Shown one piece after another: positions 7,940 through 18,322 of a DNA stretch of 64,000 nt. How positions within the stretch are numbered: position 1 is the first letter of the stretch; every line of letters starts with the position of its first letter. A program made the position numbers and the translations under genes. The notes beneath the pieces were generated by a model. It was given only the letters and a program-made list of their open reading frames with translations, was not told where the DNA came from and searched no databases. The DNA comes from Bacteroidota bacterium (GTDB taxonomy: Bacteria > Bacteroidota > Bacteroidia > Bacteroidales > SZUA-534): positions 1,608-65,607 of the forward strand of contig QKGS01000087.1 in the NCBI GenBank assembly GCA_003250355.1, given 5' to 3'.

Positions 7940-9121
7940 CTAATAGAGGAAACCAAACAACCACAATGGTATTTTATTCCCTGTACCCACTTCGTGCATA
8001 TCAGTTACTATATAAGTATTATCGGAATCGCCGGTAAGTCGCTTATTATTACCTACCTTAAATATTATATTATCATCAATTAAAAACTCACCCTTTTTAC
8101 CTATCCCCGATACTTTAAAATCCTTATTCATCATATTCAGAAAGAATGTTTCTAACAAAGCTTCTCGTGTTGGCTCGGTATGAGAAATAGCATATATTAA
8201 ATTTGTATTTTGTAAATAAATACGTTCAGGTTTCTTCGACGCATCGGCCTCTCCTTCATAAACCAAATTTATTAACCGTGCATTGCGCAAATAGTTCAAA
8301 TAATTCATCACCGTTGCACGACTGGTTTCTATAGAGTTACTTAACTTACTTACATTTGGTGTGTTAGGCATATCTTCCGACAATTCGTACATAAGCTTTT
8401 TAAGCTTAGGCAAATACTTAAGTTCTATTTGCTGAAGAAATGGAATATCTATTTCAAGTGTAAGATTTGCAATTTTGGTTACTGTTTCATTAAAATTGGT
8501 GGCCTCATCGGAGAATGGATAAAAACCTACCTTCAAGTAATCGTTAAAATAAGCTAAAGGCTTCACCTTAAACAATATATCTTTTGCTATTTTCTCGTGA
8601 TAGTTTAAAATATCTTCGATAGTATACTTTGCAAAACTTTGCGATGTTTTGTAATTAAGATATTCCCTAAACGATAACCCGCGAAGATGATAAGGTGTAA
8701 CTTTATCGAACAAGTCGGTATTCTCCTGTTTTAATCGCATTACCGGACTTCCGGTAAAAATAACCTGCAAATTCGGGAAACGATCATAAATATTGCGCAA
8801 AGCCTTTGACCAACCGGGAAATTTAAAAACCTGATCTATAACTAGTGTCTTACCCCCCATTTTCTGAAACTCATCGGCAAATTCAACAAGTCCGTATTTT
8901 GAAAAATAGAAGTTATTCAGGTTTATATACAAACACGATTTATCGTCGTTTCCATATGCGCTTTTTATGTAATCGAGTAAAAAAACAGTTTTACCAATAC
9001 CTCTGGCACCTTTAATACCAATAAGTCGGTTATTCCAGTTAATTTCATTTTTCAGTTCTCGCTTTATTGTAGAATCTACCGATGAAACTAACTCATTATG
9101 TATTTGATAAAATTGTTTCAT
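7940..9121 (-). CDS. AAA_14/DUF4143-type ATP-binding protein
   Basis: Walker A GARGIGKT, Walker B region LVIDQV, VIFTGS, LRGLSFREYL, a winged-helix segment (NVSKLS..IETSRATVMNYLNYL), and KPERIYLQNTNL. Confidence 0.8.
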   Translation of the reverse strand: MKQFYQIHNELVSSVDSTIKRELKNEINWNNRLIGIKGARGIGKTVFLLDYIKSAYGNDDKSCLYINLNNFYFSKYGLVEFADEFQKMGGKTLVIDQVFKFPGWSKALRNIYDRFPNLQVIFTGSPVMRLKQENTDLFDKVTPYHLRGLSFREYLNYKTSQSFAKYTIEDILNYHEKIAKDILFKVKPLAYFNDYLKVGFYPFSDEATNFNETVTKIANLTLEIDIPFLQQIELKYLPKLKKLMYELSEDMPNTPNVSKLSNSIETSRATVMNYLNYLRNARLINLVYEGEADASKKPERIYLQNTNLIYAISHTEPTREALLETFFLNMMNKDFKVSGIGKKGEFLIDDNIIFKVGNNKRLTGDSDNTYIVTDMHEVGTGNKIPLWLFGFLY

Positions 9122-9425
9122 AATAAAAAATGCAACACAAACTTAGCGATTTTACATTATTAGTTGCTATTTTAATATGGCAAAATTTAGTAAAAATTGT
9201 AATTTATAGGGATTATAAATAGATTTTATCATATACAAATACACTTAACACTCAACAAATAAGTGCTTTATAAAACGAATCTATTTAAAACATCTTGCTA
9301 TAAAACATTCGTTATAATTTGCGAATTAGCGGCTTTAAAACCAGTTCTTAATTCGGTCTTCGTTTTTAATATACGCAAGTTTTATATATAGAAATATAAC
9401 TACGGAACAATCATGCTTTTGCTTA

Positions 9426-9525
9426 TCGGCATTTGCCGAAAGTATGAGAAAGCATAATAATTACGTTTCGGCATTTGCCGGAAGTATGGAAATGCCAAAT
9501 GGTAACCTTCAGCATTTGCCGGAAG
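9426..9525. repeat. Three phased palindromic repeats TC(G/A)GCATTTGCCG(G)AAG
   Basis: Core GCATTTGCC at 9429, 9471 and 9512 (spacing 42 and 41 bp). Copy 1 is the inverted repeat TCGGCA-TT-TGCCGA. Confidence 0.8.
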
Positions 9526-9591
9526 CTATAAGTTTCAAAATTTCATACATCATTAACGAAATTTTATAACAAAAAAACATAAATTACCTCC

Positions 9592-9599
9592 TAAGTTTG
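9592..9599 (+). promoter_or_regulatory. -7 promoter box of the PqqD/ATP-grasp operon
   Basis: TAAGTTTG is a perfect TAnnTTTG match 45 nt upstream of ATG 9644. There is no TTG at the expected -33 position. Confidence 0.45.
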
Positions 9600-9643
9600 T
9601 AATGCAAGATACAATACAGGCTATTTATACAAAATTTTCAATT

Positions 9644-9883
9644 ATGAATATAAAGCAAAACATAAGCATTAGTAAAAACGGGTTTTTATTCGATGCCGAA
9701 ACAGGCGACTCTTATTCCGTTAATAAAACAGCAGCCGAAATACTCAACCTTATGAAAGAAGGGAAAAACGAATCGGAAATAAAAAATGCCATAGTAAGCA
9801 AATTTGAAGTTGACGAACTGGTATTTGAGCGCAACTACTATGAATTTACCAATTTGCTAAAGCATATGAATATTATGTACTAA
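9644..9883 (+). CDS. PqqD-family protein (RiPP recognition element-like); ORF track start is 9602, likely start is 9644
   Basis: 79 aa with the three-strand/three-helix PqqD pattern: GFLFDAETGDSYSVNKTAAEILNLMKEGKNESEIKNAIVSKFEV...F..LL. Confidence 0.85.
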   Translation: MNIKQNISISKNGFLFDAETGDSYSVNKTAAEILNLMKEGKNESEIKNAIVSKFEVDELVFERNYYEFTNLLKHMNIMY

Positions 9884-10025
9884 CGTGTGTTAAATTGTAA
9901 GAAACTTCTCAATGTATTGATATTATAACCTTTGTAATTAGTATCAAGTATCAAGACTTGTATAGTTGTTTTACTTGATATATATCACATATTTTTATTA
10001 ATTGATATAATAATTGTTTTAAACA

Positions 10026-11075
10026 ATGAGTAATAAAAAACAAATAACCATAGCCATAACAGGGCTCAATAACGTAGACAACCCCGGCCCGGGTGTACCT
10101 GTAATACGAGGCATACGTGAATCGAAAGAGATAGATGCCCGAATTATAGGTTTGGCATACGAAAACCTTGAACCGGGCATATATATGGAAGGACTGGTAG
10201 ATAAAACCTACCAAATACCATATCCGTCGGCAGGTAAAGAAGCTGTATGGGAACGAATAATGGAAATACACGCACGTGAACACCTCAATGTAATATTCCC
10301 CAACTTCGATGCCGAGCTGTACACATTTATGCTCATGGAAAACGACCTAAAGGAAAAAGGTATAAATATGTTTATTCCTACCATGCAGCAATTCGAAGAA
10401 CGCCATAAAGCAAATCTCGATAAGTTTGGCGAAAAATACGACATAAAAGTTCCCAAAAGTGTAGCATTAGGCTCACTTAACGACATATCGAAAATACGCA
10501 ACGAATTTGAGTTCCCTGTTCTTGTAAAGGGGAAATACTACGATGCTTTTATAGCCTATAATACCGAGCAAATAATAAACCACTACAACAAAATATCGGC
10601 CAAATGGGGGTTGCCGGTTATAATACAGGAATTTATAAAAGGTACTGAGGTAAATGTTGTTGCACTAGGCGACGGAAACGGCAATACCGTTGGTGCTGTA
10701 CCTATGCGTAAACAATACATAACCGATAAAGGCAAAGCATGGGGCGGCATAGTTATAAACAATGAAAAGCTACTAAAAATAACCCGCGACATGATAGCAA
10801 AAACCCACTGGCGAGGCGGTCTTGAAATGGAAATAATACTTACCTCCGACAATCAATACTACCTTATAGAAATAAACCCCCGTTTGCCGGCCTGGGTATA
10901 TTTAGCAGTAGGTGCCGGACAAAACCTACCCGAAGCTATGGTAAAACTGGCTATGGGACAAGAAGTAGCCCCTTACGAAAATTACACTGCCGGTACTATG
11001 TTTATTCGTTACAGCTGGGATTTAATCGGTAGTATCACCGATTTTGAAAAACTGTCGTTATATGGCGAATTATAG
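10026..11075 (+). CDS. ATP-grasp domain protein (amide/peptide ligase-like)
   Basis: FPVLVKG, PVIIQEFIKGTE and YYLIEINPRL ATP-grasp motifs; N-terminal Rossmann-like IAITGLNNVDNPGPG. Confidence 0.88.
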   Translation: MSNKKQITIAITGLNNVDNPGPGVPVIRGIRESKEIDARIIGLAYENLEPGIYMEGLVDKTYQIPYPSAGKEAVWERIMEIHAREHLNVIFPNFDAELYTFMLMENDLKEKGINMFIPTMQQFEERHKANLDKFGEKYDIKVPKSVALGSLNDISKIRNEFEFPVLVKGKYYDAFIAYNTEQIINHYNKISAKWGLPVIIQEFIKGTEVNVVALGDGNGNTVGAVPMRKQYITDKGKAWGGIVINNEKLLKITRDMIAKTHWRGGLEMEIILTSDNQYYLIEINPRLPAWVYLAVGAGQNLPEAMVKLAMGQEVAPYENYTAGTMFIRYSWDLIGSITDFEKLSLYGEL

Positions 11076-11150
11076 CATTTTTCAAAAACAGTAAATACAT
11101 TATCTTTTAATAAATAATGCCCTAACCGGCTTATAAAAATATACACAACT

Positions 11151-12506
11151 ATGAAAGAGAGATATGAGAAACCGGTAATATCGAGAATAAACGCCGGTAT
11201 ACCCGATAAATTTGGAATGAGCAGCCGAATACGTCAGGTGAGTTCAATTAATAACGTACCTGTTCAACAAATAGTGGAACAATACGGTTCGCCTTGTTTT
11301 GTAATATCGGAACAAACTATACGCAACACTTATAAGGATGCTTACAGAGCCTTTTCAACACGATACCCAAAAGTGCAATTTGCATGGTCGTACAAAACCA
11401 ATTATCTCGATGCTGTATGCCAGGTGTTTCACAACGAAGGTTCATGGGCCGAAGTTGTTTCTATATTTGAATACGAAAAAGCTCTGGCAAATGGTGTTCC
11501 CGGTAACCGAATACTGTTTAACGGCCCCGAAAAATCGGCCGATGACCTTATAAAAGCTGTTCAAAACGGGTCATACATACATATCGACCATTTCGACGAA
11601 TTATATACCCTGATAGGTATAACCCAAAATGCAGATAAAACAGCAAAAGTTGCCATTCGTATAAATATGGATACAGGTGTGTATCCCAAATGGGACCGTT
11701 TTGGTTTTAATCTGGAGAACGGCGAAGCATGGAATGCAATTACCCGCATAATGATGCAGGACAAAATGGAGCTTGTGGGTTTGCACACTCACATAGGCAC
11801 ATATATGATGACACCCGACCCATATGGTGTAGCTGCTGCAAAAATGTCGAAACTGATGATTGACATAGAAAACCGCTTCAACCATACACTAACTTATATT
11901 GACCTGGGCGGTGGTTTTGCATCGAAAAATACCCTTAAAGGGGCTTACTTGCCGGGCAAAGATACCTGCCCATCGTTCGACCAATATGCCGATGCTATTA
12001 CCAATGCCATTATTTCGTCGGGTATTGATATTGACAAACTGCCTACACTTTTCCTTGAAACAGGCCGTGCTCTAATTGACGATGCCGGATACCTGATAGG
12101 TTCGGTAAAAGCAAACAAACGACTATCTGACGGCAGAAAATCACTCGTTATTGATATTGGTGTAAATAACCTGTTTACATCGTTTTGGTACAACCACGAT
12201 ATATTCCCGGCATTTACCGAAAGTAAAGTATTAGAAGACACTACCATATACGGACCGCTGTGTATGAACATTGATATAATTCGTGAAGCTATACTCTTCC
12301 CGCCACTAGAACCAGGCGATAACGTGGTGATTGAACGTATTGGTGCTTACAATATGACCCAATGGCTACAGTTCATTACATTACGACCCAACATAGTGTT
12401 AATAGACACTAAAGGACAAATGCACCTGATACGAAAACAAGAAACTATCGACACATTCAAAGCTCAGGAACAATACCCTGAACATCTGAAACCAAAGGAA
12501 ATTTAA
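11151..12506 (+). CDS. PLP-dependent fold-type-III decarboxylase (diaminopimelate/ornithine decarboxylase family), substrate unknown, with an N-terminal extension
   Basis: WSYKTNY (PLP lysine), ILFNGPEK, KFG-like RFG, LHTHIGT, DLGGGF, LETGRALI, GPLCMNIDI and GAY motifs. Confidence 0.88.
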   Translation: MKERYEKPVISRINAGIPDKFGMSSRIRQVSSINNVPVQQIVEQYGSPCFVISEQTIRNTYKDAYRAFSTRYPKVQFAWSYKTNYLDAVCQVFHNEGSWAEVVSIFEYEKALANGVPGNRILFNGPEKSADDLIKAVQNGSYIHIDHFDELYTLIGITQNADKTAKVAIRINMDTGVYPKWDRFGFNLENGEAWNAITRIMMQDKMELVGLHTHIGTYMMTPDPYGVAAAKMSKLMIDIENRFNHTLTYIDLGGGFASKNTLKGAYLPGKDTCPSFDQYADAITNAIISSGIDIDKLPTLFLETGRALIDDAGYLIGSVKANKRLSDGRKSLVIDIGVNNLFTSFWYNHDIFPAFTESKVLEDTTIYGPLCMNIDIIREAILFPPLEPGDNVVIERIGAYNMTQWLQFITLRPNIVLIDTKGQMHLIRKQETIDTFKAQEQYPEHLKPKEI

Positions 12507-12624
12507 GATATGAGATATGAAATTTAAATAAAGGTGTAAGGAAAACGGAGACAGAAAATAGAAACTTGTAACAGTCTCCGGTCTCCTTGCAACCCTGTAA
12601 CCCTGAAACCTCAACTATTAATTA

Positions 12625-14853
12625 ATGAATATAACAAAACAAAAAATATCAATACTTCTGACATCTGTACTAAACAGCTATTCGCAGGTATTTTTTTCAA
12701 ACAATATATTCCTTGCCATAATACTGCTTACGGTAAGCTTTTTCGATTATGTATCGGGTATTAGCGGCTTACTTTCTGTGGTAACCGGGGTGTTATTGGT
12801 TGAAGCCATGGGTATGGATAAGCGTACTATAAAAAGGGGGTTATACGGATTTAACAACCTGCTGGTTGGACTTGGTATAGGGTTAAATTTTCAGTTGTCG
12901 TTCGAGCTTATAGCAATAGTAATATTTGCTTCGCTGCTTACAAGTTTCTTCACATTTGCCTTACAAGGCATATTAGGAAAATATAACCTTTCGTATTTAA
13001 GTATACCATTTTTGTTTGCTATATGGATATCGCTTTTGGCAACTAACCGTTTTAGTGCCTTGGGGTTAAGTATTAGGGGAATATATTCATACAATGAGCT
13101 ATATTCTTTAGGGGGAGTTAGGCTGCTCAACATATATGAAAGTATAGAGCAGAGCCTGCCATTTGCTGTTGTTGTTTACTTCAAATCGCTTGGAGCTATA
13201 TTTTTTCAATACAGCATATTGGCAGGCATTCTTATTAGTTTAGGCATATTGGTATATTCACGAATAGTGTTTTCACTCTCGGTACTTGGATATTTTATGG
13301 CATATTTATTTTACAAAATATTTGGTGCCGATGTTACTCAACTTAGTTACAGCTATATAGGCTTTAACTACATACTGTCATCAATTGCCATTGGCGGTTA
13401 TTTTCTGTACCCATCGTTATATTCGTACCTTGCATCAATGCTCATAATGCCACTGGTGGTAATGATATCATTTGGCTTTGAGCAAATACTAATACCGTTC
13501 AGGCTGGCATTATATTCACTACCATTCAATATGGTTGTACTTATGTTTTTGTATGCTTTACGTTTCAGAACACACAGAGCCACAAAGCTTCGCGAAATAG
13601 TTGTACAACAAAATACACCGGAGCAAAACCTGTATCTGCAAACCAACTATGTAAACCGAATGCGCTCATCGGGTATAGTGTCGGTATCGCTACCGGTAAT
13701 GGGCAACTGGACAGTTAATCAGGGATACAATGGCAAACACACCCATAAAGGCGACTGGCGTCACGGTTTGGACATGGTAATAACCGACGACAAAGGCAAA
13801 GAATATCAACATGAAGGAAATATACTAACCGACTATTATTGCTACGGCAAAAGTGTTACAGCCCCTGCCGATGGTTATATTGTTGAAGTAGTAAACAATA
13901 TTGACGAAAATGCTGTTGGCGAAATAAATATATTGCAAAACTGGGGCAATACCATAGTTATAGAGCATTATCCGGGGTTATATTCACAGGTTAGCCACTT
14001 AATGAAAAACTCTGTAACAGTTAAAAAAGGCGATTTTGTAAAAAAAGGTCAGAACATAGCCAACGTAGGTAATACAGGGCGTTCGCCCTACCCTCACCTC
14101 CATTTTCAAATGCAGGCTTCACCATATATTGGCAGCAAAACTATTGACTATCCGCTAAGTAACTATATAACCTGTTTTAACAATGAGTGCAGATATCATG
14201 CCCACGGAACACCTGCCGAAGGGCAAATTCTGAGCAATGTAGTAACTACTCCTATTATAGCCAAGGCATTCAAATTTTCGCCCGGGCAGCAATACAGCTA
14301 TTCTATTTCATTCCCCGACGGTAAGCCTGAACGTTTCATTAACCTAGAACCCGAATATACTTTTGAAGTGCACATAGACATATATAAAAACACATACCTT
14401 GAATGTAAACAAACGGGTGCAAAAGCATGGTTCTATACCGACGGGCAAATGCACTATTTCTCAAACTATACCGGCAACAAAAACACATTCCTGTTTTACT
14501 TTATGCTTGCACTATTCAAAGTTGAACTTGGCTATTACAGCAATATTGTAATAAAAGATGAAATACCTGCTCACTTTACTTTTTCAGGATTAAAACTTAC
14601 AATTCAGGACTTTTTTGCACCATTTTTCCGATTTATAAAATCGAATTACACACTTAATTTCCAAAACATTGACGATGAATTTTCACCACAAAAAGTACAA
14701 ATACATTCTGAAATACAAAATATAGTTAACCTAAACAAACTTGAACAACTCACATTCAATACTACTATCGACAATAATGGTATTAAAGAAATTACAGTAA
14801 ATATTAACAGCGATATATTTCAGGCCAAATGCTTAAAAAAGGGACATTTATAA
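12625..14853 (+). CDS. Urea-transporter-family membrane domain fused to an M23 peptidase domain
   Basis: The N-terminal ~315 aa are hydrophobic with urea-transporter signatures (SYSQVFFSNN, GLYGFNNLL, LSIPF, GAIFFQ, IGFNYIL, YSLPFN). The central region has M23 features (THKGDWRHGLD, VTAPADG, WGNTIVIEH, SHL, VGNTGRSPYPHLHFQ). Confidence 0.85.
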   Translation: MNITKQKISILLTSVLNSYSQVFFSNNIFLAIILLTVSFFDYVSGISGLLSVVTGVLLVEAMGMDKRTIKRGLYGFNNLLVGLGIGLNFQLSFELIAIVIFASLLTSFFTFALQGILGKYNLSYLSIPFLFAIWISLLATNRFSALGLSIRGIYSYNELYSLGGVRLLNIYESIEQSLPFAVVVYFKSLGAIFFQYSILAGILISLGILVYSRIVFSLSVLGYFMAYLFYKIFGADVTQLSYSYIGFNYILSSIAIGGYFLYPSLYSYLASMLIMPLVVMISFGFEQILIPFRLALYSLPFNMVVLMFLYALRFRTHRATKLREIVVQQNTPEQNLYLQTNYVNRMRSSGIVSVSLPVMGNWTVNQGYNGKHTHKGDWRHGLDMVITDDKGKEYQHEGNILTDYYCYGKSVTAPADGYIVEVVNNIDENAVGEINILQNWGNTIVIEHYPGLYSQVSHLMKNSVTVKKGDFVKKGQNIANVGNTGRSPYPHLHFQMQASPYIGSKTIDYPLSNYITCFNNECRYHAHGTPAEGQILSNVVTTPIIAKAFKFSPGQQYSYSISFPDGKPERFINLEPEYTFEVHIDIYKNTYLECKQTGAKAWFYTDGQMHYFSNYTGNKNTFLFYFMLALFKVELGYYSNIVIKDEIPAHFTFSGLKLTIQDFFAPFFRFIKSNYTLNFQNIDDEFSPQKVQIHSEIQNIVNLNKLEQLTFNTTIDNNGIKEITVNINSDIFQAKCLKKGHL

Positions 14854-16259
14854 TTCTGCTTTTAATATTTGTTACTAATATAAAAGCTCAGAATACTTAC
14901 AATTATTCTATTGATACTATAACTTACAACCAATACCTTAACGGTAAATGGGAAGAACTTTTTGAATCAGTAACCAAAGCTAATACATCGGGAGTCAGCT
15001 TTTATTACCTTACACTGCGAGGTGCTTTTGCTGCATATTACACACAACACTACAGTAAAGCTGTAACAATGTTCAGGCAAGCCGAACAACAGCAACCATT
15101 AAATTATACAGCCAAAGAAATACACCATTTGTCGGCAATATATGCCGGTATGGAGCTTGAGCAAATTCGAACCTACGACTCATTGCCTGCAACAACAAAA
15201 CCTAATTACAAAAATCCTCACCACAAGCTTTTTGAATCGGTATGTGTAGAATCGGGAATAAATACCAATAACAATTTTAACAATATTATTAATACCAAAC
15301 CAAATGTAAATAATGCCTTGTATGCTGAACGAAATTTGCATAAACAAACACTCTATAACGGTATTATATTAACAAACTCCATAAACAAAAAACTTAAATT
15401 AATACAGTCATTTCAATATATTTATGTGAGCCGGGCAACCAGTTTTTATATTGGAAATACTACACCAGATGTTACAACACCGATAACTCCAACCAACCCA
15501 TATAATCCATTACCTCCTCCACCAAATCAGCCACGTTTAAAAGCGGCTTCGTTAACAACCGGCACCGAAGCACATTTCAATACACAATCAACTCAGATTC
15601 AATACTTTTTAAGTTTAAAATACAACATTAACGACAAAGTACTTATAACCCCTGCTTTTACTTACGTAAATTATAATACAGGTACAGTAAATATTGATAC
15701 CAACAGTACAGGCATTTATTATTCAAACCACTTTAACCAAAAAGGAACTCAAACATATTTAATATTAAATATTGCCGGAGTATTCAACAGAAGTATATTT
15801 GCTGTAAACACAAATTACCTTATAGCAGAATACATTTCCCGATGGCAAAATGGTATTAGTGCAAAATTGTATCCATTTGCGTCAAAAAGGCTTTATACCG
15901 AAGGTGAGTTTTACATAAGTACAGGTAGTAACATATCCACAACACAGGTATTGAAAGGTAGTATCGGATATTATTTTAATAATATTTCGATTGAGGCTAA
16001 CTATACAACCGGTACACTATCAAACTTTGCCGACAATAACGGATTATACATTTACAACACAAAAGAGACAATAAATACAACAAAAGGTGTATCAATAACA
16101 GCTAATATTATCAAAAACAAGCTGTGGTTATCGGCTTATTACAAGTATATTACATATAATTCAGCGTATACTGTATATATAAATTCTACATCAAATAACA
16201 ATATCAATTTTGAACATAACAACCACTCAATAACAGGAGGTATAACATGGAAATTTTAA
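14829..16259 (+). CDS. Hypothetical secreted/outer-membrane protein (helical N-terminus, probable beta-barrel C-terminus)
   Basis: Signal peptide ending IKA-Q, alternating aromatic/polar beta-strand pattern, terminal GGITWKF. It overlaps both neighbouring genes, consistent with an operon. Confidence 0.65.
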   Translation: MLKKGTFIILLLIFVTNIKAQNTYNYSIDTITYNQYLNGKWEELFESVTKANTSGVSFYYLTLRGAFAAYYTQHYSKAVTMFRQAEQQQPLNYTAKEIHHLSAIYAGMELEQIRTYDSLPATTKPNYKNPHHKLFESVCVESGINTNNNFNNIINTKPNVNNALYAERNLHKQTLYNGIILTNSINKKLKLIQSFQYIYVSRATSFYIGNTTPDVTTPITPTNPYNPLPPPPNQPRLKAASLTTGTEAHFNTQSTQIQYFLSLKYNINDKVLITPAFTYVNYNTGTVNIDTNSTGIYYSNHFNQKGTQTYLILNIAGVFNRSIFAVNTNYLIAEYISRWQNGISAKLYPFASKRLYTEGEFYISTGSNISTTQVLKGSIGYYFNNISIEANYTTGTLSNFADNNGLYIYNTKETINTTKGVSITANIIKNKLWLSAYYKYITYNSAYTVYINSTSNNNINFEHNNHSITGGITWKF

Positions 16260-16867
16260 AACAAATCACATTAGTTTCAGTATTGTCAATACTTAGTTTT
16301 ACTATTGTTTCACAAGAAACAGAACCAATGGCAAAAGCTTTTATAAAGAGTTTTGAACTCGAAAATACAGGAAAATACAGCGAAGCTGCCGATATTATTA
16401 TAAGTTCATACAACAAAGAGAGTTATGAGTGCAATATGCGTCTGGGCTGGTTATACTACAAAGCCAACAACTACGATAACTCTGCCAAATACTACTATAT
16501 AGCCGGTAAGCTTATGCCCTATTCTGTTGAAGCAAAACTTGCATTAACCCTTCCACTATCGGAACAAAACAAATGGGACGACATAATGCAAGTATATAAA
16601 GATGTGCTGGCAATAGACTCAAAAAACTACAAGGCATTATATAACCTTGGGCTTATATACTATAACCGCAGCCTGTTTTACGCAGCATTCGACAACTTTA
16701 AAATACTCAACAATCTTTACCCTACCGATTACAGCGCATCGCTTATGTATGCGTGGAGTAATGTAATGCTTGGAAAAAACAGGGAAGCAAAAGTACTGTT
16801 CAACAAAATACTTTTGCTCTATCCGTCCGATAAATCGGCAACTGAGGGGTTGAGTATTTTGGAATAA
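16247..16867 (+). CDS. Tetratricopeptide-repeat protein, exported
   Basis: Signal peptide ending IVS-Q. TPR-like repeats: MRLGWLYYKANNYDNSAKYY, ALYNLGLIYYNRSLFYAA, KVLFNKILLLYPSD. Confidence 0.8.
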   Translation: MEILKQITLVSVLSILSFTIVSQETEPMAKAFIKSFELENTGKYSEAADIIISSYNKESYECNMRLGWLYYKANNYDNSAKYYYIAGKLMPYSVEAKLALTLPLSEQNKWDDIMQVYKDVLAIDSKNYKALYNLGLIYYNRSLFYAAFDNFKILNNLYPTDYSASLMYAWSNVMLGKNREAKVLFNKILLLYPSDKSATEGLSILE

Positions 16868-16951
16868 ATTTAATCCATTATTATTCTTTACTGATGATGC
16901 GTTTACTTTTAAAAAATATATGAAAGTATTCCTAAAAAAACAACAAACCTA

Positions 16952-16981
16952 TTGCAAATTCAAATTTTACAGCTAAATTTG
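16952..16981 (+). promoter_or_regulatory. his operon promoter
   Basis: TTG (16952-16954), N19, TAAATTTG (16974-16981), 30 nt upstream of the His leader ATG. Confidence 0.65.
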
Positions 16982-17010
16982 CATTGCATATTTAAAAATG
17001 AAACAGAACA

Positions 17011-17064
17011 ATGAACAACTTGCATCACTATCATCATTCAATAAATCAACGCAACAGCGCATAA
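17011..17064 (+). CDS. hisL: Histidine operon leader peptide
   Basis: MNNLHHYHHSINQRNSA*, with four His codons clustered, located between the promoter and a terminator upstream of hisG. Confidence 0.8.
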   Translation: MNNLHHYHHSINQRNSA

Positions 17065-17097
17065 CTGATGGTGTAGTAGGTACATATAATATTATCG

Positions 17098-17126
17098 AAA
17101 AGCTCGCAGTAATGCGGGCTTTTTTT
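17098..17126 (+). terminator. Attenuator terminator of the his leader
   Basis: AAAAGCTCGCA-GTAA-TGCGGGCTTTT followed by a T-run, 33 nt after the leader stop. Confidence 0.8.
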
Positions 17127-17461
17127 GTTAAAGCTTAATAGGTTCTAAAATATAAGTTCTAAGTTTTAAGTTTTAGGATATAGGTTCTTTGGGCTGCCGC
17201 CTCAGCTACTGCGCTATTGTATCGCATGGGGTAAGTTAACAAGCCACACAAAAGTTTCGTGCGGCAGCAATAAGTAATGAAATCAAATAAATAAATGAAG
17301 TCATTCCTCCCTACGGTAGGAATCTTTATCTTACAACTTATTATAATAAATAAATATGTAGTAGAAAAAAAATAAATAATTAAATAACCGAGAGTGAAAT
17401 AAGGTGTGAGCATTGAGCAATACTCACTACCTAAATATCACTACTCACATACTAAAAAAAT

Positions 17462-18322
17462 ATGGAAACAGTTTTAAGAATTGCTATTCAAAAAAATGGA
17501 CGCTTAAGCGAAAAAACACTTGAGCTACTTAAAAATTGTGGAATCGACTTTACTACAAGCGGTGCTATACTCAAAGTAAAGGCTTCAAACTTCCCGCTCG
17601 AAATCCTTTTCCTGCGCGACGACGATATTCCTGGTTACGTTTCAAAAGGTGTTGCCGATATTGGTGTTTGCGGTGAAAATGTAGTTGACGAAAAAGGATA
17701 TAAAACAGAGCTTGTTCACCGATTAGGATTTGCAAAATGCCGCTTGTCAATAGCTATACCAAAACGTTTCGACTACCCGGGAACAGAATATCTTGAAGGT
17801 AAAACCATTGCAACATCATACCCTGTTATTTTAGGTAAATACCTTAAAGAAAAAGGGGTAAATGCCGAGGTTCGTGAAATAAGCGGTTCGGTTGAAATAG
17901 CACCCGCAATTGACCTTGCCGATGCTGTTTGCGACATAGTTAGTACCGGAAGTACACTACTTGCCAACGGACTTAAAGAGGTTGAAGCATTTTACAAATC
18001 AGAGGCTTTACTAATTTCAACCCCGCAACTTGCAGGTGAAAAGAAAGCTATTCTTGACCAGTTAATGTTCCGTATTAAAGCGTGCCAAAGAGCTAAAAGA
18101 GCAAAATATATTGTACTAAATGCACCTAACAATAAGGTTCAGGAAATTGCAGATATTTTACCCGGTATTAAAAGCCCTACCGTAACCCCACTAGCACAGG
18201 AAGGCTGGAGCTCTATGAGTTCAGTTATTGACGAGAACGACTTTTGGGATATTTGCGAAAAGCTTCACGAAAAAGGAGCCGAAGGGGTACTTGTAATGCC
18301 TATTGAGAAGATGATTTATTAA
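17462..18322 (+). CDS. hisG: ATP phosphoribosyltransferase (long form)
   Basis: LRIAIQKNGRL, LRDDDIP, IATSYP, GSVEIAP, DIVSTGSTL, and a C-terminal regulatory domain. Confidence 0.97.
   Translation: METVLRIAIQKNGRLSEKTLELLKNCGIDFTTSGAILKVKASNFPLEILFLRDDDIPGYVSKGVADIGVCGENVVDEKGYKTELVHRLGFAKCRLSIAIPKRFDYPGTEYLEGKTIATSYPVILGKYLKEKGVNAEVREISGSVEIAPAIDLADAVCDIVSTGSTLLANGLKEVEAFYKSEALLISTPQLAGEKKAILDQLMFRIKACQRAKRAKYIVLNAPNNKVQEIADILPGIKSPTVTPLAQEGWSSMSSVIDENDFWDICEKLHEKGAEGVLVMPIEKMIY

Follow-up and report, generated by a model that had tools for sequence, protein, structure and literature searches.

A urea transporter-fold channel fused to an M23 peptidase of predicted cytoplasmic location forms the constant membrane element of a six-gene operon in Bacteroidota and other diderm bacteria

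Channels of the urea transporter (UT) family are built from 10 transmembrane helices and two pore helices (PMC10541013), have cytoplasmic N- and C-termini with an extracellular loop between their halves (PMC9097623), and narrow to 2-3 Å at the constriction of the solved pores (PMC10541013). Peptidases of family M23 carry H(x)nD and HxH motifs, hold zinc through two histidines and one aspartate, activate water with the first histidine of HxH and another about 30 residues upstream, and in all characterized bacterial examples work on the outer side of the cytoplasmic membrane (PMC9662197). M23 peptidases are commonly viewed as cell-wall enzymes located beyond the cytoplasm, and UT channels as conduits for urea; here we describe a protein in which both are joined. 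The gene lies in a stretch of 64,000 nucleotides (hereafter the window, to which all positions refer) from a Bacteroidota bacterium of the Bacteroidales lineage SZUA-534 (GenBank assembly GCA_003250355.1, contig QKGS01000087.1, positions 1,608 to 65,607 of the forward strand), and its product, referred to below as the UT-M23 protein, is the fixed membrane component, or hub, of a six-gene operon. The open reading frame (ORF) is organized as follows.

12625..14853, forward strand: whole ORF of 742 residues, comprising a UT-fold membrane domain, a linker, an M23 domain and a C-terminal domain.
12652..13563, forward strand: UT-fold domain, residues 10-313, predicted to have 10 transmembrane and 2 pore helices with both termini inside (Pfam, alignment with the channel dvUT, Foldseek and charge count).
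13564..13689, forward strand: basic juxtamembrane linker, residues 314-355, with RFRTHRATKLR followed by the conserved Q328..P332-E333-x-N335-x-Y337.
13690..14124, forward strand: M23 metallopeptidase domain, residues 356-500 (Pfam, Foldseek and residue tallies).
14125..14850, forward strand: C-terminal domain, residues 501-742, predicted to be beta-rich and seen only in the UT-M23 architecture (separate model and Foldseek).

Both domains were recognized by Pfam well above the cut-offs. The UT profile (PF03253) matched residues 13-311 (E 8.8e-55, 186.4 bits against a cut-off of 25) and was covered nearly at full length (positions 2-290 of 292), while Peptidase_M23 (PF01551) matched residues 407-497 (E 1.3e-17, 64.2 bits against 28.7). 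The AlphaFold2 model of the whole protein had a mean pLDDT of 87.1 and a pTM of 0.80, with linker helices at residues 332-338 and 342-349. The original prediction, made from the sequence alone, of a UT domain and an M23 domain in one ORF with the strings THKGDWRHGLD and PHLHFQ was confirmed on all these points, the two strings starting at residues 373 and 490, respectively; the tail without a known family after the M23 domain is also present, but it spans about 245 residues (498-742) rather than the approximately 200 first proposed.

The fusion is real and not the product of chance or misassembly, because 2,405 homologues emerged when 5.8 billion proteins were searched, and relatives were present in at least 544 genomes in a scan of one genome per species. 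Among the 120 homologues listed, nearly all had about 730 residues and both Pfam domains, and the record titles named Bacteroidales, Marinilabiliaceae, Prolixibacteraceae, Flavobacteriales, Cyclobacteriaceae, Rhodothermaceae, Chlorobiota, and Neomarinimicrobiota. Within an even sample of the same order, the gene was found in 65 of 151 genomes, always as a single copy and in nearly all of them as an open frame of about 700-780 residues. Elsewhere in the genome analyzed here no second UT domain was found, and at least five other M23 proteins matched the Pfam profile nearly at full length. A full-text literature search retrieved no description of the UT-M23 fusion or of the six-gene operon. Both folds are known, whereas no precedent is known for their combination, for a peptidase of this kind in the predicted location or for the genomic context.

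The location of the peptidase relative to the membrane is central to any interpretation of this protein. The UT domain aligned end to end with the Desulfovibrio channel dvUT (3K3F residues 14-313), and the model superposed on dvUT with Foldseek TM-scores of 0.82-0.86 and on human, bovine and zebrafish UTs with scores of 0.75-0.79. After residue 313, the model contains no helix of membrane-spanning length, and the sequence there reads RFRTHRATKLRE. Loop sides were assigned from the model helices and charges were tallied in 34 family members, in which the predicted cytoplasmic loops held on average 9.9 Lys and Arg residues against 2.5 in the periplasmic ones, with the cytoplasmic count larger in all 34 sequences and a net charge of +6.9 against -4.0. 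Moreover, the urea-pocket residues, which in cryo-EM structures of UTs lie in Pa, 3a and 5a on the cytoplasmic side and in Pb, 3b and 5b on the extracellular side (PMC11589576), fall on the matching sides of the predicted topology. Because the UT fold has both termini inside, no later transmembrane helix follows and the loops show a positive-inside bias, both termini, and hence the M23 and C-terminal domains, are consistently predicted to be cytoplasmic, which supports, at the level of prediction, the earlier suggestion that the peptidase faces the cytoplasm. An inverted or otherwise atypical topology, in which a periplasmic M23 domain would serve as an ordinary membrane-anchored peptidoglycan endopeptidase, would fit the extracytoplasmic location of all characterized bacterial M23 enzymes (PMC9662197) and the exported proteins encoded by the two downstream genes. 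Nonetheless, it is extremely unlikely in view of the even number of transmembrane helices in the UT fold with nothing after them, the charge bias seen in 34 of 34 sequences, the five or more canonical M23 proteins already present in the genome, with an Hx3D-type first motif in the two that were read, and the fact that the M23 subtype of the UT-M23 protein was never found outside the fusion.

The M23 domain itself combines conserved and divergent features, which were tallied in 195 distinct family sequences spanning several phyla. H374, D383, H458, H491, and H493 were present in all 195 sequences, with H458 lying 33 residues upstream of H491, and the NWGN/GNSGRS core was conserved. The second half of the domain aligned cleanly with Csd, Pgp3, zoocin and DipM, and Foldseek gave TM-scores of about 0.7 to DipM, EnvC, StM23 and EnpA. 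The first motif reads H374-x5-H380-x2-D383 and lacks the Hx3D spacing canonical for the M23B form, which is seen in the two canonical M23 proteins of this genome (MHEGID and MHDGVD). By alignment, H380 occupies the canonical ligand position, and it was kept in 169 of the 195 sequences (87%), the replacements being Tyr (17), Gln (4), Asn (3) and Phe (1). Two residues separate D383 from H380 and eight separate it from H374, and both histidines are candidate zinc ligands. In LytM, the oxyanion-stabilizing Tyr204 stands six residues before the ligand H210; judged by spacing only, H374 would match Tyr204, since it stands six residues before H380. A family-specific insert of about 18-20 residues follows D383 and includes an invariant C406 and, in at least 98% of the sequences, Y404 and K409.

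The variant first zinc motif noted in the original prediction is thus real, with the qualification that H380 is replaced in 13% of the family while H374 and D383 are invariant. This partial loss, together with the absent Hx3D spacing and with the presence of DipM and EnvC, whose LytM domains are degenerate, among the top fold matches, would suit a non-catalytic docking module of the LytM type (like EnvC, NlpD and DipM) that recruits the PqqD-like, ATP-grasp and decarboxylase proteins of the operon to the channel. Such a role is very unlikely, however, given that D383, H458, H491 and H493, along with H374, are invariant in 195 sequences from several phyla, whereas catalytic residues or zinc are missing from degenerate LytM factors (PMC9662197). 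The conservation pattern is apparently easier to reconcile with an active enzyme than with a factor of the degenerate LytM type. Stand-alone copies of this M23 subtype were not confirmed among the 222 matches of a short-protein search, and two short matches checked on long contigs (P0131 and P0159) sit inside the same operon, where the ATP-grasp gene and its neighbors are fragmented as well. At loci L090 and L091 (ENA contigs contig_43382 and contig_103806), the operon is broken up along its entire length into numerous short gene calls, which we read as frameshift errors of long-read assembly; contigs of this kind give rise to the apparent stand-alone M23 and C-terminal-domain proteins in protein databases.

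The channel domain has retained the general features of the UT pore, including the signature motifs SQVFF, GFN (twice), LSxPF and SLPF, but departs from it at defined positions. In characterized UTs, urea is recognized by a motif that reads Q-V-Y/F-T on the cytoplasmic side (Pa, 3a, 5a) and Q-V/I-F/Y-T on the outer side (Pb, 3b, 5b), and changing several of these residues, including the outer glutamine, to alanine significantly decreased urea transport in human UTs (PMC11589576). The cytoplasmic set in the UT-M23 family is Q21 (190 of 195), V/I22, F76 (187 of 195) and S126 (193 of 195), and the outer set is A191 (194 of 195), I192, F247 (195 of 195) and S298 (172 Ser and 23 Ala). The outer Pb-helix glutamine, which is a glutamate in dvUT, is therefore an effectively invariant alanine (Ala191), and both pore threonines are replaced; the family does not carry the full urea recognition motif, with six of its eight positions kept or conservatively changed. 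Pore-motif positions had a mean conservation of 0.89, with 30 of 64 invariant, against 0.63 and 23 of 240 for the other UT positions, and as the most conserved part of the membrane domain they argue against a mere membrane anchor. The pore thus appears to be under constraint, but changed from its urea-channel form.

These observations bear directly on whether the protein could be a urea channel of the normal kind, equipped with accessory domains, that exports or imports urea. The strong Pfam UT match and the retention or conservative change of six of the eight recognition positions would agree with such a function, and this genome has one arginase-fold gene whose product could make urea. That gene lies on another contig, however, and nothing ties it to the operon. 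Moreover, the score against the NCBIfam equivalog urea_trans_yut (TIGR03441) was 132.2 bits, below the cut-off of 274.6, and the Pb glutamine, whose mutation to alanine significantly lowered urea transport in human UTs (PMC11589576), is here an invariant alanine. The absence of urease genes from the window, already noted in the original prediction, holds for the genome in its entirety (99.98% complete), where the best urease-alpha match scored 19.6 bits against a cut-off of 680. Urease was likewise found in none of the 65 carrier genomes, and the three urease-bearing genomes among the 151 sampled from the order were all non-carriers. A normal urea channel unlinked to the rest of the operon had been named in the original prediction as an outcome that would overturn it, and we consider a normal urea channel highly improbable. 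Overall, the UT-M23 protein appears to be something other than an ordinary importer of urea or a hydrolase of the cell wall. As a separate observation, the biosynthetic arginine decarboxylase SpeA occurred in 9 of 65 carriers and 28 of 86 non-carriers (odds ratio about 0.33, phylogeny ignored); the present genome carries both SpeA and the UT-M23 gene, and we draw no conclusion from this skew.

The genomic context resembles a biosynthetic operon. In a survey of 80 loci searched with the neighboring proteins of the window, the gene order was fixed as PqqD-like protein, ATP-grasp ligase, pyridoxal phosphate (PLP)-dependent decarboxylase similar to FslC and BtrK, UT-M23 protein, tetratricopeptide repeat (TPR) protein with an outer-membrane barrel, and TPR protein, with the UT-M23 gene almost always in fourth position. 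The decarboxylase was present at 76 of these loci, the ATP-grasp ligase at 69, the TPR protein at 68, the PqqD-like protein at 63 and the barrel protein at 61, and the missing genes belonged mostly to loci truncated by contig ends. The five other genes in the window are listed below.

9602..9883, forward strand: small PqqD-like (RRE-type) protein, first gene of the operon (Pfam PqqD, E 2.1e-8; 63 of 80 loci).
10026..11075, forward strand: ATP-grasp ligase (58-79% identity over 69 of 80 loci).
11151..12506, forward strand: PLP decarboxylase of the ornithine/diaminopimelate/arginine fold (nearest solved relative FslC; 76 of 80 loci).
14829..16259, forward strand: secreted protein of 476 residues with an N-terminal TPR and a probable outer-membrane beta-barrel (sequence features).
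16247..16867, forward strand: TPR protein of 206 residues with a signal-peptide-like N-terminus, presumably periplasmic, whose homologues have roughly 200 residues (68 of 80 loci).

Among solved structures, the decarboxylase was closest to FslC, an N-citrylornithine decarboxylase (E 5.5e-60), with a more distant match to BtrK, which decarboxylates carrier-bound glutamate. Its N-terminal tail, [YF]ERPxIxK[IL]xAG[MV]PxKFGM, was strongly conserved in the 45 loci displayed (positions 11151-11240 of the window, residues 1-30). Downstream, the start of the 476-residue gene overlaps the UT-M23 stop by 25 nucleotides and is followed by the 206-residue TPR gene with an overlap of 13 nucleotides. The 476-residue protein, whose homologues have roughly 450 residues, begins with a signal-peptide-like segment, matches TPR near its N-terminus and ends in ..GG[IL]xWxF, with an aromatic last residue in most of the 60 loci displayed. 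A conserved C-terminus with a final aromatic residue is the usual signature of outer-membrane beta-barrels, and this protein is probably one of them. A promoter and terminator scan of positions 9100-17500 gave counts equal to those of shuffled sequence.

Some variation was also observed around the conserved genes. A seventh gene lies between the ATP-grasp and decarboxylase genes in 12 of the 69 loci holding both (L013:4744-5574, L001:4618-5427, L014, L018, L019, L027, L032, L035, L045, L050, L073, and L076). Its products are mutually homologous (27-70% identity, about 260 residues) and have a signal-peptide-like start in 10 of the 12 recovered ORFs; the one from L013, the only product examined in this respect, carries a C-terminal sorting domain of the type IX secretion system (Pfam Por_Secre_tail, E 3.3e-10). 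The seventh gene is present in the two closest relatives of the window (L001 and L050) and absent from the window, and a paralogue with 29% identity lies elsewhere in this genome (G000:C28:11078-11689, locus L093). In related loci, the usual upstream neighbor is an AraC-family regulator (Pfam HTH_18 and HTH_AraC, e.g., L013:2583-3377), in place of which the window has an AAA_14/DUF4143 ATPase gene on the opposite strand (7940-9121).

The C-terminal domain matched no Pfam family even at E ≤ 10. Modeled separately (pLDDT 91.1, pTM 0.87), it is mostly beta-strand with four short helices, and its best matches in the PDB by Foldseek were LolA-superfamily proteins, LprF, Rv2717c, RseB, DUF1849 and retinoic-acid-binding proteins, all of them weak (best E 8.4e-4, probability up to 0.99, TM-scores of 0.26-0.44, rmsd of 9-14 Å). 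As a lead only, the domain may form a ligand-holding cup with a shape resembling a beta-barrel. A search of 1.84 billion representatives gave 617 matches, and in all 150 of those listed the domain formed the very end of either a full-length protein or a fragment; the 10 matches of a short-protein search for stand-alone copies were fragments. The fusion of the UT, M23 and C-terminal domains therefore appears to be obligate.

The fold matches raise the possibility that a trimeric UT domain acts as a scaffold, placing the M23 and LolA-like C-terminal domains at the inner leaflet, where they would act on a lipid-linked peptide or lipo-amino substrate, for instance the stem peptide of the lipid-linked cell-wall precursor, with the C-terminal domain holding the lipid. 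LolA, LprF, RseB and Rv2717c are lipid or lipoprotein carriers, and ATP-grasp ligases, diaminopimelate decarboxylase-like enzymes and M23 peptidases all have relatives acting on peptidoglycan peptides. We nevertheless regard this explanation as unlikely, considering how weak the matches are (best E 8.4e-4, TM-scores of 0.26-0.44) and that conservation is much higher in the motifs lining the pore than elsewhere in the UT domain, a constraint needless for a mere anchor.

The most likely function of the UT-M23 protein is the cleavage of an amide at the mouth of a small-molecule channel. In the reading that we consider best, and that we advance tentatively as falling a little short of an even chance, the ligase and the decarboxylase would assemble a small compound that contains an amide linkage and bears an amine, possibly while it is attached to a carrier or a scaffold; the tethered M23 domain would then hydrolyze one amide bond (peptide or isopeptide) beside the cytoplasmic mouth of the pore; and a small uncharged product would cross the inner membrane through the modified UT pore toward the TPR and barrel proteins. 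The logic of ligation followed by decarboxylation is backed by the relationship of the decarboxylase to FslC (E 5.5e-60) and BtrK, and in this scheme we infer the activity of the M23 domain, the bond it cuts, conduction by the pore, its cargo and the direction of transport. Some observations weigh against it. H380, at the position of the canonical first zinc ligand, is replaced in 26 of the 195 members, so the metal site may be atypical, or absent in some of them; the width of 2-3 Å in solved UT pores limits the cargo to urea-sized molecules (PMC10541013); and a dedicated pair of TPR and outer-membrane barrel proteins is more typical of polymer export than of the passage of a tiny solute.

The same components would also allow transport in the opposite direction, with a small amide or urea-like compound entering through the barrel and the UT pore and being hydrolyzed at once by the M23 domain, which would keep an inward gradient as urease does for UreI and Yut, while the ligase and the decarboxylase process the pieces. 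UT channels are passive and bidirectional, and the bacterial examples serve uptake; besides, the hydrolase is obligately fused to the cytoplasmic end of the channel, and the polar Q21 and S126 are kept in the cytoplasmic half of the pore while their counterparts in the periplasmic half are lost. However, an ATP-consuming ligase and an RRE-type adaptor are hallmarks of biosynthesis rather than catabolism and no catabolic genes are conserved in the operon, so that uptake has, in our judgment, a small probability. Returning to amide cleavage followed by outward passage, this reading could be extended to the entire cassette as an envelope-spanning make-and-release system, in which the RRE-type adaptor joins the ligase to a decarboxylase acting on the conjugate, the M23 domain releases the product, and the repurposed pore and the dedicated TPR and barrel proteins provide the exit. 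In this proposal, the complex, possibly assembled on the leader-like tail of the decarboxylase itself, would make a small amide or amine compound on a scaffold. We consider this extension rather doubtful.

Export of a peptide was considered in addition, as the original prediction had likened the fusion to a peptidase-containing transporter that processes a peptide coupled to its export. Precursors were sought as ATG-started ORFs of 12-90 residues within 700 bp upstream of the PqqD gene at 59 loci, which were then clustered. No conserved small ORF was found upstream of PqqD at these loci and no precursor peptide was seen in the clusters inspected; the recurring small ORFs corresponded to the C-terminus of the AraC-type gene or were of low complexity and look like shadows of its frame. 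Peptide export through the UT-M23 protein is thus not supported, in view of the 2-3 Å pores of its homologues (PMC10541013), the highly conserved pore motifs, the lack of a precursor ORF at the 59 loci and the lack of ATP-binding cassette (ABC) machinery.

The UT-M23 protein has been kept across hundreds of diderm species of Bacteroidota, Chlorobiota/Ignavibacteria-type bacteria, Rhodothermaceae and Marinimicrobia, even though the predicted location of its peptidase is unsuited to work on the cell wall and its channel lacks a urease partner. If the tethered peptidase cuts beside the pore, it would represent a new coupling of a chemical release step to passive passage across a membrane, and the UT-M23 gene would mark a widespread pathway. 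If the make-and-release proposal is true, an M23 peptidase would for the first time have a metabolic role in the cytoplasm, and a UT channel would for the first time have a role unrelated to urea. At least one carrier is in culture, Mariniphaga sediminis SY21 (locus L043), making the question experimentally testable.

Comparison with known systems places the UT-M23 protein at the intersection of several of them. With the UT/SLC14 channels (dvUT 3K3F, Yut, UT-A, and UT-B) it shares the complete inverted repeat of 10 transmembrane and 2 pore helices and the same predicted topology, but it has about 430 additional residues predicted to be cytoplasmic, an invariant alanine in place of the Pb glutamine or glutamate, and Ser or Ser/Ala in place of the two pore threonines; it also falls below the Yut equivalog cut-off, does not co-occur with urease (65 genomes) and belongs to a biosynthesis-like operon. 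The resemblance to the M23B endopeptidases (LytM, lysostaphin, MepM, ShyA, Csd3, and Pgp3) lies in the M23 fold (TM-score of about 0.7), the HxH motif, the upstream histidine and the aspartate, whereas the predicted cytoplasmic location, the H374-x5-H380-x2-D383 motif instead of Hx3D, the insert of about 18-20 residues, the lack of a signal peptide or cell-wall-binding domain and the exclusive fusion to the UT and C-terminal domains set it apart.

Peptidase-containing ABC transporters match the predicted arrangement in that their peptidase domain is attached to a membrane transport protein at its cytoplasmic face and in that they are encoded beside maturation enzymes. The UT-M23 protein, in contrast, has no ABC fold, ATPase or C39 domain, with only the UT and M23 domains matched, and the homologous channels have pores much too narrow to admit a peptide (PMC10541013). 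UreI or Yut, in combination with cytoplasmic urease, offers the parallel of a passive channel for small neutral solutes that operates together with a cytoplasmic metallo-amidohydrolase; in the UT-M23 protein, the hydrolase has an unrelated fold and belongs to the same polypeptide as the channel, and the pair is not urea plus urease. Finally, in the pathways of rhizoferrin (FslA/FslC) and butirosin (BtrI/BtrJ/BtrK, of which BtrJ is an ATP-grasp enzyme), the decarboxylase acts on an amino acid that has already been joined, and the decarboxylase of the operon is nearest to FslC, but these pathways lack a UT channel, an M23 domain, a PqqD-like protein and outer-membrane components.

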